A stretch of DNA of 58,851 bases from Candidatus Zambryskibacteria bacterium CG10_big_fil_rev_8_21_14_0_10_42_12 (lineage in GTDB: Bacteria; Patescibacteriota; Minisyncoccia; Phycocordibacterales; 1-14-0-10-42-12). The notes under the pieces are model-generated. The model saw only the letters and a list, made by a program, of their open reading frames with translations, did no database searches and had not been told where the DNA came from. The translations under genes were made by a program, and so were the position numbers. Of this stretch, positions 12,589-29,349 are shown piece by piece (positions within the stretch are counted from its first letter, which is position 1; each line of letters starts with the position of its first letter). The stretch is taken from the NCBI GenBank assembly GCA_002787695.1, contig PCXL01000011.1, forward strand, positions 1 to 58,851, given 5' to 3'.

Positions 12589-14379
12589 ATGGATAACCAA
12601 GAGCAGATCACATATTTTGCGGAGACAGATGCACGTGGTAAACGTGTACCTTTTGGTATAAAAGCAAAAGATAGAACAAAGCACATGTATGTGATCGGCA
12701 AAACTGGTATGGGTAAGTCAACACTACTTGAGAATTTGGCAATCCAAGATATTAAAAACGGAAACGGGCTTTGCTTTATGGATCCGCACGGAAAGACTGC
12801 AGAATTACTCCTTGAGTACATTCCAAAGGAGCGCATGGATGATGTATTGTATTTTGCACCATTTGACCTCGATAACCCTATTTCGTTTAACATTATGGAA
12901 GATGTCGGATATGACAAGCGCCATTTGGTTGTGTCTGGACTCATGTCTGCCTTTAAGAAAATTTGGCTAGATGCATGGAGTGCTCGTATGGAGTATATTC
13001 TCACGAATACACTTCTGGCACTTCTTGAATACCCGGATGCGACACTGCTGTCGGTTAATCGTATGTATACGGACAAGGCGTATCGTAAAAAAGTAGTTGA
13101 AAATGTGACAGATGCGACGGTAAAAGCTTTTTGGACAGAAGAGTTTGCAAACTATACGGACAGATTTACACAAGATGCAACCCCGGCTATTCAAAACAAA
13201 GTTGGACAATTCACCTCGAACCCGGTTATCCGCAACATCATTGGACAACCGAAATCTTCTTTCGATCTTCGTGAAATCATGGATCAGAAAAAGATTTTAA
13301 TCGTGAACCTTTCCAAGGGGCGCGTAGGGGAAACAAATGCGAATCTGCTCGGTAGTATGCTCATCACCAAGATCTATCTGGCCGCTATGAGCAGAGCAGA
13401 TGCGGGAGATCAAGCGATTTCCAAAATGCCAAATTTCTACCTGTATGTGGACGAATTTCAGTCTTTTGCCAATGAATCGTTTGCAGATATTCTCTCAGAG
13501 GCACGTAAATATAAGCTTAACCTCACGATGGCGCACCAGTATATCGAACAAATGGCGGAAGAAGTGCGTTCGGCAGTCTTTGGAAACGTAGGAACGATGA
13601 TCACGTTTCGTGTGGGTGCCTATGATGCTGAAGTTTTAGAAAAAGAATTTGCACCCGTGTTTACCGCAGAAGATTTAGTGAATCTAGGGTTTACACAGAT
13701 TTATCTCAAACTCATGATTGATGGGGTATCGAGTCAGCCGTTTTCTGCAACAACTCTTCCTCCCTTACCTCATCCGGAAGATTCTCTTGTAGAAAATCTC
13801 ATAAAATCCTCTAAAGAGAAATTTGGTAAACCACGTGCTGAAGTTGAACAGGCTATACATGAATGGTATCAGGATGGCGCAAAACCTGCTCAAAATGAGC
13901 AAAAAAAAGATACAAAAGATGTGTCTGCGAAAAAAGATATTGGCACACATGATAGTCGTTCACATAAACCAATTTCAGATAAACCAAGAGACAAGAAACC
14001 TCATGTGCACGAGGTGCCCAAGATGGACGGCGCGACATCTATTAAAGAAGCAATGGAAAAAGCTCTCGATAGGACAGATGACAAAGGAAATTCTGAAAAA
14101 AATGAATCATTGCCACTTTCAACGCTTTTAAGTGACAAACAAAAGAAAGCTAACCCATCACCAGAGAAGGTGTCTTCTCTCAAGGATGCACTCTCTGAAC
14201 TCATGAAAAAGCATCCTCAGAACAATAGTCAAAAACAAAAAAGAAATGATGTTCCTCCTAAAAAAGTGGAGAGACGGGAAGCACAAAAAAGTGATCAACA
14301 GGTGACCGCCAATGAAAGTTCTCACAAAGAACAGGCAGGAGTTTCCCCTGATGAGCTCAAGAAAATTTTTGCAGATTAG
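12589..14379 (+). CDS. Type IV secretion coupling-protein-like ATPase (VirD4/TrwB family) with charged C-terminal tail
   Basis: Walker A GKTGMGKS, MDPHG, Walker B LYVDEFQ, SEARKY, AHQY..Q, FGNVGT. Confidence 0.88.
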   Translation: MDNQEQITYFAETDARGKRVPFGIKAKDRTKHMYVIGKTGMGKSTLLENLAIQDIKNGNGLCFMDPHGKTAELLLEYIPKERMDDVLYFAPFDLDNPISFNIMEDVGYDKRHLVVSGLMSAFKKIWLDAWSARMEYILTNTLLALLEYPDATLLSVNRMYTDKAYRKKVVENVTDATVKAFWTEEFANYTDRFTQDATPAIQNKVGQFTSNPVIRNIIGQPKSSFDLREIMDQKKILIVNLSKGRVGETNANLLGSMLITKIYLAAMSRADAGDQAISKMPNFYLYVDEFQSFANESFADILSEARKYKLNLTMAHQYIEQMAEEVRSAVFGNVGTMITFRVGAYDAEVLEKEFAPVFTAEDLVNLGFTQIYLKLMIDGVSSQPFSATTLPPLPHPEDSLVENLIKSSKEKFGKPRAEVEQAIHEWYQDGAKPAQNEQKKDTKDVSAKKDIGTHDSRSHKPISDKPRDKKPHVHEVPKMDGATSIKEAMEKALDRTDDKGNSEKNESLPLSTLLSDKQKKANPSPEKVSSLKDALSELMKKHPQNNSQKQKRNDVPPKKVERREAQKSDQQVTANESSHKEQAGVSPDELKKIFAD

Positions 14380-14853
14380 CATATACAAATAATATTTTTA
14401 CGAATCTACAAATGACTACAAATCGGAATGTGTCTAAAGAAATGGAAAAAGTCATTTACCCGCAATTATCCTATTCTCTTACAGGTATATTGTTTAAAGT
14501 TCATAATGAATTGGGACAGTATGCACGAGAAAAACAATATGGCGATTTGCTGGAGTCTTATTTAAAAGAGGCATGTATATCTTATAAACGAGAATTGAAC
14601 CTAGGAGATAGTGGTAATATTCTTGATTTTGTTATAGATAATAAAATTATCTTAGAATTGAAAGCGGTACGAGTGATCACGGGGGAGTCTTTTAGGCAGG
14701 TACAAAATTACCTACAGCAAAGTCACTTGAAGTTGGGTATATTGGTGAATTTTCGGGCAAAATATTTAAAACCTGCTCGAGTACTTCGAATTGATGGCCT
14801 GCATCATTTGTAGCCATTCGTTATAATTCGCATTATTTGTAGATTTGTATATG
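14380..14853. mobile_element. Stem-bracketed single-gene cassette carrying the GxxExxY gene
   Basis: Inverted repeats CATATACAAAT (14380-14390)/ATTTGTATATG (14843-14853) and CTACAAATG (14406-14414)/CATTTGTAG (14805-14813). Mobility is inferred, not shown. Confidence 0.5.
14412..14813 (+). CDS. GxxExxY protein (PD-(D/E)XK nuclease fold)
   Basis: VHNELG.YAREKQY (variant motif), DFVIDNKIILELKAV, QVQNYL, LGILVNF. Start could be 14442. Confidence 0.88.
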   Translation: MTTNRNVSKEMEKVIYPQLSYSLTGILFKVHNELGQYAREKQYGDLLESYLKEACISYKRELNLGDSGNILDFVIDNKIILELKAVRVITGESFRQVQNYLQQSHLKLGILVNFRAKYLKPARVLRIDGLHHL

Positions 14854-15993
14854 AAAAAAGTACTCATTTGTGCAACTGATTACCTTCCTCATGTTGGCGG
14901 GGCAGAACTTGCTGTATCTGAAATCGCAAAACGTTTGGCATCACAGGGATATATTTTTGATCTTATAACAGCACGGTTAGATACGAAACTTCCACGGTAT
15001 GAATATATCGATGGTGTCCATGTATTTCGTGTAGGCTTTGGTTTTTGGTTTGATAAGTTTCTACTTCCATGTCTGGGCCTTATGCGATATGTGTCGCTCA
15101 GCAGAAGACCGTATGACGTTGTCTGGTCATTGATGGCGAGTCAAGGTTCTGTGTTGGCGTCATGCATTTCGATCATCTCTAAAACTCCTCTCTTACTCAC
15201 TCTGCAAGAAGGAGATGAAGAAGAACATCTCGCGCGCTATGCCTTGGGCAGTCGCTTGTTATACCGATTGTTCATTAGACCTTGGCATGCACTTGTTTTT
15301 AAGAGGGCAAAACGCATCACGGCAATCAGTGAACACTTGAAGGTGCGGGCTGAACAACGTTCTCGTGCTCCTGTTGATATTGTGCCAAACGGTGTGAATC
15401 TTACTCATTTTAGCCAAGTCGATGATCAGCTGGTTGAACGTATTAAACAAACATATAACTTGGTTGGTAAAAAAGTTGTCGTATCGGTTTCTCGGTTGGT
15501 TAAGAAAAATAATATAGCAATGCTTGTTCGAGCATTCACACACGTGCTGGAAGATACGATGTTGTTTGTGGTAGGTGAAGGAGATCAAAAAAAATCGCTG
15601 GAATTACTGGTGGGTGCGCGTACCCTCTCCCACAGAGTCGTGTTTGTAGGTAGTGTTGATCCAAAAGAGGTTCCAGCATATGTGCATGCAGGAGATGTCT
15701 TTGCGAGAGTTTCTCTGTCTGAAGGATTTGGCAGTGCGTTTCTAGAGGCGTTTGCGGCCGGCGTACCAGTTGTTGCATCTCCGGTCGGTGGGATTGTCGA
15801 TATTGTAAAAGACGGTGAAACTGGTTTGCTTGTATCACCTGATGATGAACATGCTATTGCTCAAGCCATTGAAAGACTGTTTGCAGATGAACATCTTCGG
15901 CAAACACTTATCGATAATAGTAAAGTGATGGCACAAAAATACAGCTGGGATACTGTCGCAGATCTTATGAGACAATCATTTGACCAAATGTAA
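14851..15993 (+). CDS. Glycosyltransferase family 4
   Basis: YLPHVGGAE, IVPNGV, SRLVKK, EGFGSAFLEAFAAGVPVV. Confidence 0.92.
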   Translation: MKKVLICATDYLPHVGGAELAVSEIAKRLASQGYIFDLITARLDTKLPRYEYIDGVHVFRVGFGFWFDKFLLPCLGLMRYVSLSRRPYDVVWSLMASQGSVLASCISIISKTPLLLTLQEGDEEEHLARYALGSRLLYRLFIRPWHALVFKRAKRITAISEHLKVRAEQRSRAPVDIVPNGVNLTHFSQVDDQLVERIKQTYNLVGKKVVVSVSRLVKKNNIAMLVRAFTHVLEDTMLFVVGEGDQKKSLELLVGARTLSHRVVFVGSVDPKEVPAYVHAGDVFARVSLSEGFGSAFLEAFAAGVPVVASPVGGIVDIVKDGETGLLVSPDDEHAIAQAIERLFADEHLRQTLIDNSKVMAQKYSWDTVADLMRQSFDQM

Positions 15994-26731: not shown

Positions 26732-28021
26732 CTAGTCTACACGTTCTTTAAATTGTGTTTCCCAGTGTAAAAGTGGTCGAATGATCCCAGGAATTTTGCC
26801 AGTGTATTCGCCACGCGCACTTGTGCCGTCAAACGAATCAATAATATTAAATGCAACTGCATCGCGCTCTTCAAAGTGAACCGTAAATGGGGAGAGTGTG
26901 CTCATAGCTATCCAAACAGTATACCTGCCTTCTGATAGTAAATTACCTGGTATGGTTGCTGTGGTTGTATACATTCCTTTAGGACGTACTTTACCGCGCC
27001 ATGTTTTTTCATAATCACCTGCAACAAAAACGCAAATATTATTGTCATTATACAGGTGGTAATTTGGATATAATACATGTCCAGCCTCTTTGACTTCATA
27101 TGCAGCTTCAATGTCGATAGGGTGTCTAATATCAATCGAATCTGTTACTTTTTGATTCTGTTTAATCTTTACGGAGCGTAATGAAACAATGTTATCTCTA
27201 GACACTCTGTCAGCCCATTTCTTTGAGGCACGCGGACCAATATGAGAGTTCATGTAGAGATCAATTACGTCCTGAGTGTTTCCGAACATAACCACTTCTC
27301 CCTTGTTGAGTAGAATTGTCTTTTGGCAAAGTTGTCGAATGGCTCCCATATTATGACTCACGAACAAGATTGTGCGTCCTTGTTCTTGGGTCACTTCTTC
27401 CATTTTGCCGAGGCATTTCTTCTGGAACTCTGCATCACCAACGGCGAGTACTTCATCGACAAGTAAAATATCTGGTTCCATGTGGGCTGCAACAGAGAAG
27501 GCAAGACGTACATACATACCGGACGAATAACGTTTTACGGGAGTATCAAGGAATTTTTCAATGCCGGCAAATTTTACGATAGCATCAAAATTCTTTTCGA
27601 TTTCTGATTTTGTCATACCCAAGATGGCACCATTGAGAAAAATATTTTCTCTTCCTGTTAGTTCAGGATGGAAGCCGGTCCCCACTTCAAGCAAAGATGA
27701 AACTCTGCCGCGCATGATAACTTCTCCTTCTGTAGGTGGTGTAATACCAGTAAGTATTTTGAGTAGCGTTGATTTGCCCGCGCCGTTTGCACCAATAATA
27801 CCAATGACCTCTCCTTTTTCTATAGAGAGGCTAATATCTTTAAGTGCCCAGAATTCTTCTTTTTTAGAAAGGCCAATGGCGTCCTTTACCTTATGTGTGG
27901 CAAATCGAAATGGATTTTTAAATACATGAGCAAGCACATCACGAAGTGCGACATAACCCCCGCGCATATGCTGTATGTCGTATTTTTTTCCAAGATTTTT
28001 TATTTCGATAATCGGTTTCAT
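26732..28021 (-). CDS. wzt: Polysaccharide ABC transporter ATP-binding protein with Wzt C-terminal domain
   Basis: GANGAGKST, YSSGMYVRLAF, LLVDEVL. True start ATG 28021; the ORF-track extension to 28186 overlaps another gene. Confidence 0.94.
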   Translation of the reverse strand: MKPIIEIKNLGKKYDIQHMRGGYVALRDVLAHVFKNPFRFATHKVKDAIGLSKKEEFWALKDISLSIEKGEVIGIIGANGAGKSTLLKILTGITPPTEGEVIMRGRVSSLLEVGTGFHPELTGRENIFLNGAILGMTKSEIEKNFDAIVKFAGIEKFLDTPVKRYSSGMYVRLAFSVAAHMEPDILLVDEVLAVGDAEFQKKCLGKMEEVTQEQGRTILFVSHNMGAIRQLCQKTILLNKGEVVMFGNTQDVIDLYMNSHIGPRASKKWADRVSRDNIVSLRSVKIKQNQKVTDSIDIRHPIDIEAAYEVKEAGHVLYPNYHLYNDNNICVFVAGDYEKTWRGKVRPKGMYTTTATIPGNLLSEGRYTVWIAMSTLSPFTVHFEERDAVAFNIIDSFDGTSARGEYTGKIPGIIRPLLHWETQFKERVD

Positions 28022-28026
28022 ATAAG

Positions 28027-28445
28027 TAGTTTGTAAAGCCGAAAGTTCATAAAGTCTATAAAGTTTTGATAAATCCAGAAAGCATTTTTGATATCTCAAC
28101 TGATGCACCGTATGTCTTAACAAACTCTTTTTTTGAAATGTATTGTAATTCAATAGCCATATAGAGCATTGAGCGCACCTCTCCACAGGATCCTTTTGCT
28201 ATAAACAAAAAATATTTTAGTTCTTTGTTACTTTTTCTCTCGAAACCTTCGGCTATATTATTCATAATCGAAATTGAGGCTCGTTGAATCTGGTCTTTGA
28301 AACCAATATCTTTATGTTTCTCAAAAAGAGTATATACCAAAAGAGTCAGTTCTTTCGCTTTTTGCCATGCCATAATATCTTCAAATTTTTCTATTTTCAT
28401 ACTCGATGTTTACTTTTCACTTTATGAACTTTCTACTTTCAACTA
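28027..28445. mobile_element. Stem-bracketed single-gene cassette carrying the four-helix-bundle gene
   Basis: Perfect 15-bp IR GAAAGTTCATAAAGT (28041-28055)/ACTTTATGAACTTTC (28419-28433), imperfectly extended to 28027 and 28445. Mobility is inferred. Confidence 0.5.
28056..28400 (-). CDS. Four-helix-bundle protein (23S rRNA IVS protein / TIGR02436-like)
   Basis: FEDIMAWQKA, DQIQRASISIMNNIAEG, FLFIAKGSCGE, KML.GFIK.L. Confidence 0.93.
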   Translation of the reverse strand: MKIEKFEDIMAWQKAKELTLLVYTLFEKHKDIGFKDQIQRASISIMNNIAEGFERKSNKELKYFLFIAKGSCGEVRSMLYMAIELQYISKKEFVKTYGASVEISKMLSGFIKTL

Positions 28446-29267
28446 AATGATGTCTGCAAAATAACTTTCCACTTTTTTAAAATATGCGATACCGATAATC
28501 ATGATGACTATACAGACAGTAGAAGAGAGAAGTAAAAGAGCCCAATTGATTGGTGTGGTGTGTAGAAGTCCTGCACGAGCCGTCTGTACGACCCCCATCA
28601 TGGGGTTCAGTGCTAAAATCCAAGAATATTTCCCTGCGATACTTGCAGGGTAAATAACTGGTGTTACGAATAAAAGTAGTTGGATGAAAAAGGGGAGTGC
28701 GTAGCGTACATCACGATATTTTACATTGACTGCAGATAAGAATAAACCGGCTCCAACAGCGACGAAAAAAGTAATAAGAAGGAGCACTGGTAGGATAAGG
28801 ATTCCGGTAAGACTCGGAACATAGTGATAGTAGAACATCATGCCGACTAAAATAATACTTGCGAGTATAAAATCGACAAATTTCGTGATAACTGCCGAAA
28901 CCGGCAAAATCAAACGAGGAAAATAGACTTTGGTTACAATAGATTGATTGGCGATAAGTGCCATTGAAGTATCAGAGAGAGCTGATGAAAAGAACTGCCA
29001 AAAGAGGAGTCCTACATACACAAAAATAGGATATGGTACGCCGTCTGAAGGAATGCCTGCGAGTTTTCCAAAAAATATAGTAAAGATAACCATGGTGACA
29101 AAGGGTTGTAAGATCGCCCAAAGACCTCCGATAGCCGTTTGTTTATATCGCACTTTAATATCGCGCCACGATAAAAAATATAAGAGACCACGATAATCCC
29201 ACAGCTCTTTTATATCTCGTAAGCTAAATGTTTTCTTAGGGCGAATGACAGTAACATTCGTTCGCAT
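28443..29267 (-). CDS. wzm: Polysaccharide ABC transporter permease
   Basis: RDIKVRYKQTAIG..W, KVYFPR, KYRDV, TPVIYP, NPM.GVV. Confidence 0.94.
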   Translation of the reverse strand: MRTNVTVIRPKKTFSLRDIKELWDYRGLLYFLSWRDIKVRYKQTAIGGLWAILQPFVTMVIFTIFFGKLAGIPSDGVPYPIFVYVGLLFWQFFSSALSDTSMALIANQSIVTKVYFPRLILPVSAVITKFVDFILASIILVGMMFYYHYVPSLTGILILPVLLLITFFVAVGAGLFLSAVNVKYRDVRYALPFFIQLLLFVTPVIYPASIAGKYSWILALNPMMGVVQTARAGLLHTTPINWALLLLSSTVCIVIMIIGIAYFKKVESYFADII

Positions 29268-29349
29268 AGCGCCCACTATAGCAGAATTACGACTTTTTTT
29301 GAATGTCAGATATCTGTATTGTTACCTATATATATGTATACTAAAAGAC

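Follow-up and report, generated by a model that had tools for sequence, protein, structure and literature searches.

Candidatus Zambryskibacteria bacterium CG10_big_fil_rev_8_21_14_0_10_42_12 carries, on contig PCXL01000011.1, a gene for a P-loop ATPase followed on the same strand by a gene for a glycosyltransferase (GT). The two are separated by 471 nt, and this interval holds a third, small gene whose product belongs to the GxxExxY (PDDEXK_3) family. The first and last codons of the small gene run into arrays of a seven-base word, TACRAAT, which are inverted with respect to each other and which end at the stop codon of one neighbor and the start codon of the other. The question raised by this locus is what kind of element the 474 bases at positions 14380–14853 represent, and how it can reside in such a junction. 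The window referred to below is the whole stretch that was analyzed, 58,851 nt in length. The explanation that we favor, at somewhat better than even chance, is that 14380–14853 belongs to a family of selfish cassettes of very small size and is resident at its site; in this family a gene of about 130 codons for a nuclease-fold protein lies between inverted, phased heptamer arrays.

The cassette and its passenger gene

A preliminary description of this locus had stated that an outer inverted repeat extends from the base after the ATPase stop codon to the GT start codon, and that its arms are composed of TAC(A/G)AAT units. Both statements hold. The sequence CATATACAAAT (14380–14390), which follows immediately upon the ATPase TAG (14377–14379), is a perfect 11-nt inverted repeat of ATTTGTATATG (14843–14853), and the final three bases of the latter are the GT ATG, contained in the terminal TATG of the right arm. 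The left arm has four units. The right arm has three exact ATTYGTA units and two that are degenerate, ATTCGTT and ATTCGCA; its unit spacing of 10, 10, 9 and 8 agrees with the family-wide mode of 10 described below. The coding sequence of the passenger is built into these arrays. The left-arm unit at 14407 overlaps the passenger ATG (14412–14414) and the unit at 14417 forms codons 2–4, while the right-arm unit at 14806 overlaps the passenger stop codon TAG (14811–14813); the start consists of the tail of TACAAAT plus G, and the stop of the tail of ATTTGTA plus G. An inner repeat is also present, in that CTACAAATGA (14406–14415, with the passenger ATG) is the perfect complement of TCATTTGTAG (14804–14813, with the passenger stop codon), and ACGAAT at 14400–14405 is complementary to ATTCGT at 14816–14821. 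Both host open reading frames, ATPase and GT, are intact and have ordinary termini.

A chance inverted repeat was considered and rejected. Seven of the 34 matches to TACRAAT in the 58.8-kb window fall within these 470 bases, all of them oriented as an inverted pair requires, and the alignment score of the left arm with the reverse-complemented right arm, 46 here with a mean of 45 over 58 loci, is far above that of shuffled arms (20). No further GxxExxY gene or TACRAAT cluster is found elsewhere in the window.

The assignment of the passenger to the GxxExxY family, also made in the preliminary description, agrees with profile matches to PF13366 (E = 3.5e-20, 72.9 bits with a cutoff of 22, profile positions 2–109 of 117) and to TIGR04256 (68.5 bits with a cutoff of 35, profile positions 2–115 of 116). 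Residues E40, D72, E82 and K84 are invariant in an alignment of 28 homologues. In the AlphaFold2 model (pLDDT 80.8), with strands at positions 72–75 and 79–84, D72 opens strand 2 and E82-x-K84 is located on strand 3. This predicted geometry is canonical for the PD-(D/E)XK nuclease superfamily, whose members share an alpha-beta-beta-beta-alpha-beta core with the catalytic-motif residues at these places, and the model thus puts the protein among them. Residues 1–11 and 130–133, which are encoded by the arms, are disordered in the model. Comparison between cassettes gives a ratio of nonsynonymous to synonymous divergence (dN/dS) of about 0.12 with a median dS of 1.9, values that indicate strong purifying selection on the passenger protein.

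Table 1. Positions of the features discussed, in the window unless a locus of the homologue collection is named
Feature	Position	Strand	Remarks
Upstream host gene, TraD/VirD4/HerA-like P-loop ATPase	12589..14379	+	Pfam T4SS-DNA_transf, TrwB_AAD_bind, DUF87; NCBIfam TraD-like
Left arm	14380..14423	+	terminal CATA, then TACRAAT at 14384, 14399, 14407, 14417
5′ strand of predicted dominant RNA helix, with passenger AUG	14399..14415	+	minimum free energy (MFE) structure; pair probability 0.73–1.0
Passenger gene, 133-aa GxxExxY / PDDEXK_3 protein	14412..14813	+	PF13366, TIGR04256
Right arm	14805..14853	+	ATTTGTA 14806, ATTCGTT 14816, ATTCGCA 14826, ATTTGTA 14835, ATTTGTA 14843, then TATG
3′ strand of predicted dominant RNA helix, ending 1 nt before GT AUG	14833..14849	+	MFE structure and pair probabilities
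Downstream host gene, GT4-family glycosyltransferase	14851..15993	+	Pfam Glycos_transf_1, Glyco_transf_4
Second passenger cassette, same stop-to-start layout	28021–28445	-	PF05635 gene between wzm and wzt
PF05635 "23S rRNA intervening sequence protein" gene	28059–28400	-	between wzm (28446–29276) and wzt (ATG near 28020)
Gene-less hairpins of TACRAAT/ATTYGTA arrays	L064 3453–3548; L073 386–468, 1842–1897; L068 2530–2569; L075 3876–3990		
Solo one-sided arrays	L066 1215–1249, 1749–1783, 3649–3674; L070 1353–1397		

Related cassettes and the junctions they occupy

A homologue scan with one genome per species gave 80 loci with proteins 54–73% identical to the passenger, all from Patescibacteria, and 59 of these loci could be anchored. 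The preliminary description had expected inverted repeats beside other GxxExxY genes, and inverted heptamer arrays are in fact the rule at these homologous loci. Over the 59 loci, the 160 nt 5′ of the conserved PELSY motif contain about 120 copies of TACRAAT on the coding strand and none in inverted orientation; about 135 copies of ATTYGTA lie between -40 and +80 nt around the stop codon. When the most frequent 6-mer is taken for each cassette, 305 copies are oriented as expected and 6 are not. The spacing of the units has its mode at 10 (range 8–11), with a second peak at 17–20. Most loci take their start codon from the tail of a unit (TACGA|ATG or TACAA|ATG) and their stop codon from the tail of an inverted unit (ATTCG|TAA or ATTCG|TAG), and the open reading frame therefore extends into both arms. 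Complementarity between the arms is 90% at unit positions vs 73% in the spacers between units; since the spacers also pair to this extent, the arms are true inverted repeats and more than arrays. Some sub-lineages have alternative words, among them TACGAAAAT, TACTAAT and TACCAAT(CTCC), and both arms then change in concert. The features that define this class, at least three like-oriented 7-nt units per arm, about 8–11 bp apart and enclosing the gene, are all present in the window copy. Literature searches found no printed description of a heptamer-armed GxxExxY cassette; in the library that was searched the name GxxExxY appears in three papers, and none of them deals with such an architecture.

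The left flanks of L011 and L014 show the whole left arm and the first few codons of the gene duplicated in tandem. Another unusual arrangement is found in L024 at about 2400–2940, where a direct repeat of about 29 nt from the 5′ end of wzt (ATGTTAAACTCAGCAATTGAAATAAAAAATG) lies just before the GxxExxY start and again at the true wzt start. The left arm is upstream of the first ATGTTAAACTCAGCAATTGAAATAAAAAATG copy, and the arrangement might record a joining of gene and arms.

The coincidence of arm ends with the codons of neighboring genes, noted first for the window copy, extends to the family. From the stop codon of the same-strand upstream gene to the first unit the median distance is 3 nt (0–12 nt in 27 of 40 loci), and from the last unit to the downstream ATG it is likewise 3 nt (-3 to +12 in 37 of 47 loci). 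In 14 of the 47 the sequence ATTYGTATG is found, its ATG serving as the downstream start. Because the arms abut a neighbor's stop and start across loci, the coincidence is a property of the family. The neighbors themselves are diverse. There are about 30 different same-strand junctions among 58 loci, most of them represented once and with unrelated flanks; independent gene calls give same-strand neighbors such as wzm|wzt, ruvA|fpg and NUDIX|small open reading frame. Several junctions recur across species: wzm|wzt in at least 9 cases, dnaB-like|recR in 6, ruvA|fpg in 4 and permease|ABC ATPase in 4.

Empty sites were surveyed at 80 metagenome loci with an ATPase 56–78% identical to that of the window. 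None of the 80 has a GxxExxY gene, and the gene order DUF4015-ATPase-GT-GT-GT is widely conserved in relatives. Forty-nine of these loci hold both ATPase and GT. The distance from ATPase stop to GT start lies between -17 and +37 nt in 28 of the 49, and the two genes overlap in 15 loci, most commonly by 11 nt (...gATGtctccTAAaaag...). As the related ATPase loci lack the cassette and 28 junctions abut or overlap, the cassette is an insertion, as the preliminary description had supposed when it suggested looking for relatives with an empty site. Among the findings that it had named as counting against it, neither an absence of inverted repeats at other GxxExxY genes nor an absence of empty-site alleles was encountered. 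The insertion splits the ATPase/GT junction of a conserved operon, at which the two genes normally overlap; gene pairs joined in this way are usually regarded as translationally coupled.

Other inserts are seen at the ATPase/GT junction of relatives. In L093, L094, L103, L105, L106 and L111 it has a different insert of 150–270 nt encoding a small hydrophobic peptide, and in L134 a 105-aa coiled-coil-like open reading frame on the opposite strand. This variety marks the junction as a recurrent landing place.

Predicted transcript folding and possible protein recognition

The preliminary description proposed that nested outer and inner stems fold the transcript and join the upstream stop with the downstream start. 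The complementarity for both stems is present as described above. The predicted fold is different, however, and stop and start are not joined in it. In the MFE structure and in the ensemble the dominant register is a 17-bp helix (Table 1; pair probability 0.73–1.0), and an outer stop-to-start stem does not appear in the predicted ensemble. Several mutually exclusive arm pairings exist, because the arms are repeats. The predicted helix buries the passenger AUG (paired probability 0.98), and the GT AUG, one base 3′ of the helix, is mostly free (0.31).

These properties bear on the possibility that the element works at the RNA level as an "mRNA intervening sequence". The arms would then be kept for the stem that they form in the transcript. 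Either RNase III would excise the passenger, as in a 23S rRNA intervening sequence, or the stem would preserve the coupling of the neighboring genes by bringing stop and start close to each other or by masking and unmasking the start. We consider this explanation unlikely, although a number of observations agree with it. Besides the closing helix at this locus, arm-to-arm pairing is predicted in 50 of 57 loci; the arms adjoin stop and start codons throughout the family; and the ancestral ATPase/GT junction is an overlap typical of coupled genes. Shine-Dalgarno-like motifs are present in only about 4 of the 41 long open reading frames of the window, and this, together with the -10-like hexamers described below, suggests that its genes are expressed in a Shine-Dalgarno-independent, near-leaderless manner. 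With such motifs scarce, local structure should matter for initiation and start selection probably depends on it, and an RNA function is thereby kept alive as a secondary one.

A second passenger in the same window also agrees with an RNA function. A gene of the PF05635 family is located between wzm and wzt on the minus strand and is flanked by a 21-nt, 90% inverted repeat (28035–28055 / 28419–28439) built of GAAAGTn units. In the MFE structure the gene is looped out by a closing stem that is predicted to extend from the wzm UAG to a point 5 nt short of the wzt AUG. The wzm|wzt junction is of the type occupied by GxxExxY cassettes in other genomes. A further parallel is the intervening sequence (IVS) of the Coxiella 23S rRNA, which is 428 nt long, has an open reading frame of the PF05635 family, a 28-bp terminal stem and heptamer repeats before the open reading frame, and is cleaved by RNase III (PMC4990558).

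The arms themselves do not show the marks expected of a sequence maintained for RNA pairing. No sense-strand bias is found in the duplex energy of the arms, the plus strand being better in 28 loci and the minus strand in 29 (p = 0.83). Mismatches between arms show no excess of G·U, with 88 of the G·U-compatible type vs 103 of the A·C type, and full partition functions give equal arm pairing for sense and antisense strands (p = 0.77). In addition the sequence of the heptamer is conserved and does not drift by compensatory change, and it is hard to see what an RNA helix would gain from identical, oriented units phased at 10 bp. Nor does the predicted fold provide the coupling. The favored register leaves the stop-adjacent 11-mer unpaired with the GT AUG, and when 14362–14392 is forced open, which mimics a ribosome at the ATPase stop, pairing at the GT start changes only from 0.62 to 0.60. 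Translational unmasking, the release of the GT start by a ribosome that has reached the ATPase stop, therefore has no predicted effect in silico and was rejected. Pairing at the GT start is also ordinary for this genome, as other starts in the window give 0.56 ± 0.14. A search for the cassette in Rfam gave no match at E ≤ 1.

A different maintenance is suggested by the heptamer. A top 6-mer derived from TACGAAT or TACAAAT is retained in 42 of 58 loci, its orientation and its spacing of about 10 bp being fixed as well, despite saturated synonymous divergence (median dS 1.9, as given above). A helix needs only complementarity, and not one conserved, repeated and helically phased word, and the units are for this reason read as protein recognition sites. 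Conservation of the word where synonymous sites are saturated suggests that a protein reads it. The most likely reader would be the GxxExxY protein, because it is the only component that is always inherited with the heptamers.

The reader could also be a protein of the host. In that case phased ATTYGTA arrays would be a binding platform or promoter module in front of many Paceibacteria genes, the right arm would serve the GT, and the GxxExxY gene would be merely one of those so equipped. This is very unlikely. Solo one-sided arrays do exist (Table 1): left-type arrays run into the 5′ ends of other open reading frames and right-type arrays lie just upstream of gene starts, and in L066 and L070 inverted-unit arrays are found directly 5′ of unrelated genes. 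Such solo arrays could be what is left of former cassettes, or they could be regulatory sites in their own right. A promoter role would fit the TATAAT hexamer that arises from two ATTCGTA units 9 bp apart, and also the -10-like boxes that native genes have near their ATG in place of a Shine-Dalgarno motif. Nevertheless, 75 of the 84 unit clusters in 1.06 Mb of fetched loci adjoin a GxxExxY gene. The arrays form an inverted pair around a gene, of which the left array points away from any gene start, and the complementarity of their spacers makes them true inverted repeats. The window has no other cluster of the motif, and a promoter and terminator scan gave nothing above shuffled sequences and no terminator inside the cassette.

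With regard to -10 elements, perfect TATAAT formed by two such ATTCGTA units (ATTCGTATAATTCGTA) is seen in the right arms of L002, L011, L012 and others. The window has TTATAAT at 14822–14828, and many of its open reading frames have a -10-like hexamer 8–15 nt 5′ of the ATG. Judged by sequence the arms could carry outward-facing -10 elements.

Also very unlikely is a free-standing gene resembling those of homing endonucleases, whose nuclease would cut specific junctions where they are empty and let repair copy the cassette in, with the arms as by-products. In its favor, the same junction types recur across species, the ATPase|GT junction is known both empty and occupied, and identity between cassette proteins is slightly higher within a site than between sites (71% vs 64%). 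Against it, most of the roughly 30 junctions are singletons with unrelated flanks, the conserved feature is the arm array within the element and not a flanking target, gene-less hairpins carry the arms, and the passenger at wzm|wzt in the window is from another family.

Persistence, movement and relation to known elements

The preferred explanation, a selfish cassette of nuclease gene and recognition repeats, can be stated as follows. The first and last codons of the passenger run into inverted arrays of 4–5 TACRAAT heptamers phased at about one DNA turn. A protein would recognize the heptamers by their sequence, most likely the nuclease-fold protein that the cassette itself encodes, and through its action the unit would on rare occasions be copied or inserted, or would be retained. 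Insertion would be tolerated for three reasons: the arm ends are flush with the upstream stop and carry or preserve the downstream ATG; the cassette has no terminator; and the predicted 17-bp helix in the operon transcript would loop out the passenger, hide its start and leave the downstream AUG right at its base. Such a fold would simply follow from the inverted repeat. It would not be what maintains the arms, even if it may have been put to use in the manner of the 23S rRNA IVS.

Gene-less copies are part of the family. Nine of the 84 unit clusters lack a gene, and hairpins of about 90 nt with loops of 10–20 nt are found in L064, L068, L073 and L075. That of L064 ends ...ATTTGTATG, which is used as the start of the next gene.

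Several observations weigh against this explanation. No identical protein was found at two sites; three proteins, each on 17–24 contigs (58 in total, from many samples), occur at one junction each. Paralogues in the same genome are 62–84% identical and not near-identical. At 14380/14853 no target-site duplication is visible, the outside bases being GATTAG on the left and AAAAAAG on the right with no shared direct repeat. A fold search gave weak matches only, to Cas4 SSO0001 (the best, E = 3.6e-3, TM-score 0.44), to a lambda-exonuclease-like enzyme and to tRNA-splicing endonucleases, and a sequence search of the PDB found no relative of the passenger protein. The solo arrays upstream of genes, lastly, could be host regulatory sites.

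Among sequencing runs, the window stretch is present in three groundwater DNA runs and in no RNA run, and no contig of the source metagenome skips the cassette (14380–14853). One 1553-nt contig of the source sample joins the left arm up to 14423 to the right arm from 14806 through 18 unrelated bases, with a depth of 17.4 vs 15.3 for the contig of the window. This joint, the only one related to the cassette, has 6 mismatches in its right arm; it represents another locus and was rejected as an excision product. Taken at the level of sequence, the element family appears to be old and to turn over slowly; movement would be rare, and there is no sign of current movement. Mobilization driven by the nuclease is plausible but would be slow.

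The closest resemblance is to the 23S rRNA IVS with S23p open reading frames in Coxiella and Leptospira (PMC4990558). Both units are about 0.43–0.47 kb in length and have one open reading frame of about 115–135 codons without a Shine-Dalgarno motif, terminal inverted repeats that close a long stem, and heptamer repeats just before the start of an open reading frame that is looped out of the host transcript, in the cassette by prediction. The stem by which an IVS is recognized has its counterpart here in the predicted 17-bp helix around a 133-codon open reading frame. However, the cassette lies between two protein-coding genes in an mRNA operon and not in helix 25 or 45 of 23S rRNA, and its passenger has a PD-(D/E)XK nuclease fold whereas the IVS protein is a four-helix bundle. 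On either arm the units recur every 10 bp or so, unlike IVS heptamers, which are in tandem at 7 bp. The open reading frame is under strong purifying selection, whereas the S23p open reading frame of Coxiella is decaying (PMC4990558). RNase III excision has been shown for the IVS; for the cassette it is hypothetical.

A small nuclease-type gene between inverted copies of a presumed recognition repeat is also the arrangement of the REP/REPIN-RAYT systems, and these share with the cassette the gene-less hairpin derivatives between genes and the slow, mostly vertical turnover. RAYTs are HUH/Y1 transposases that act on REP hairpins. The passenger, in contrast, has a PD-(D/E)XK fold and no Y1_Tnp match, the arms are arrays of 4–5 phased heptamers, and the window cassette is inside an operon junction where it supplies codons to itself and to its neighbor.

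Transcribed miniature inverted-repeat transposable elements (MITEs) offer another comparison. The Correia elements of Neisseria are non-coding MITEs with a TA target duplication and no cognate gene, and they form RNase III-sensitive hairpins in mRNA. Like the cassettes they are small elements bounded by terminal inverted repeats, lie beside start codons, are co-transcribed and may provide promoter or start signals; unlike them, full copies of the cassette encode a conserved protein, and no duplication is seen. With insertion sequences and MITEs in general the cassette shares terminal inverted repeats and empty sites in relatives, the latter at loci with an ATPase only 56–78% identical. Its sole open reading frame, however, is a PF13366 gene with no recognized transposase, and identical proteins are found at single junctions.

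The mechanism implied by the preliminary description, in which a segment at the end of the upstream coding sequence pairs with the downstream start region, resembles the "Min Jou" interaction of phage MS2, where long-range RNA pairing between coat and replicase cistrons couples the translation of neighbors. It differs in that the GT start codon is not the paired partner in the predicted ensemble and occupation of the upstream stop has no effect on its accessibility in silico.

The Ssn nucleases of the GIY-YIG superfamily and their NTS/SRM repeats (PMC11893778) similarly combine a small single-domain nuclease gene, framed by recognized repeats, with repeats dispersed around genes. For Ssn, cleavage of single-stranded DNA has been demonstrated; its nuclease superfamily and its repeat structure are not those of the cassette.

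Thus the locus is outside the definitions of 23S IVS, REP/RAYT, Ssn/NTS and transcribed MITEs: it lies outside rRNA, its enzyme is neither of the HUH nor of the GIY-YIG type, and it has no transposase and no target duplication. The window copy appears as a stable, resident selfish cassette of nuclease gene and repeats that resembles the 23S rRNA intervening sequences, and is a clean, well-bounded example of such cassettes or of IVS-like inserts. A broader synthesis would combine DNA and RNA functions in one self-sufficient element of 0.47 kb. The 133-aa nuclease would read the phased heptamers and by means of them occasionally copy the element into operon junctions; in the transcript, the arms would make the element a portable "mRNA intervening sequence" that loops out and silences its passenger, is cut by RNase III or bypassed by ribosomes, and hands the downstream gene a start so that the coupled pair survives; and the wzm|wzt cassette with its four-helix-bundle "23S IVS protein" would be a sister system. 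As a whole this synthesis is distinctly unlikely.

Two different passenger families share a stop-to-start layout within one 59-kb window, and the case links two puzzles, the nature of 23S rRNA intervening sequences with their open reading frames and the tolerance of insertions in the compact, overlapping operons of ultra-small bacteria.

Short conserved segments of the GxxExxY core (within 14490–14670) have a summed contig depth above 1000 in groundwater metagenomes (runs X1–X3), compared with 15 for this genome. Close homologues are carried by very many other organisms in the sample.

GxxExxY/PDDEXK_3 is a very large protein family, and its function is listed as "unknown" in a census of the PD-(D/E)XK superfamily (PMC3424549). 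This locus and its relatives supply a concrete, testable context for the family, with a candidate substrate in the form of a 7-base word, repeated in arrays of fixed phase and orientation, that has been kept although silent substitutions are saturated. Should the protein prove to cut specific sequences according to a modular heptamer code, a further interest would lie in its use as a tool.

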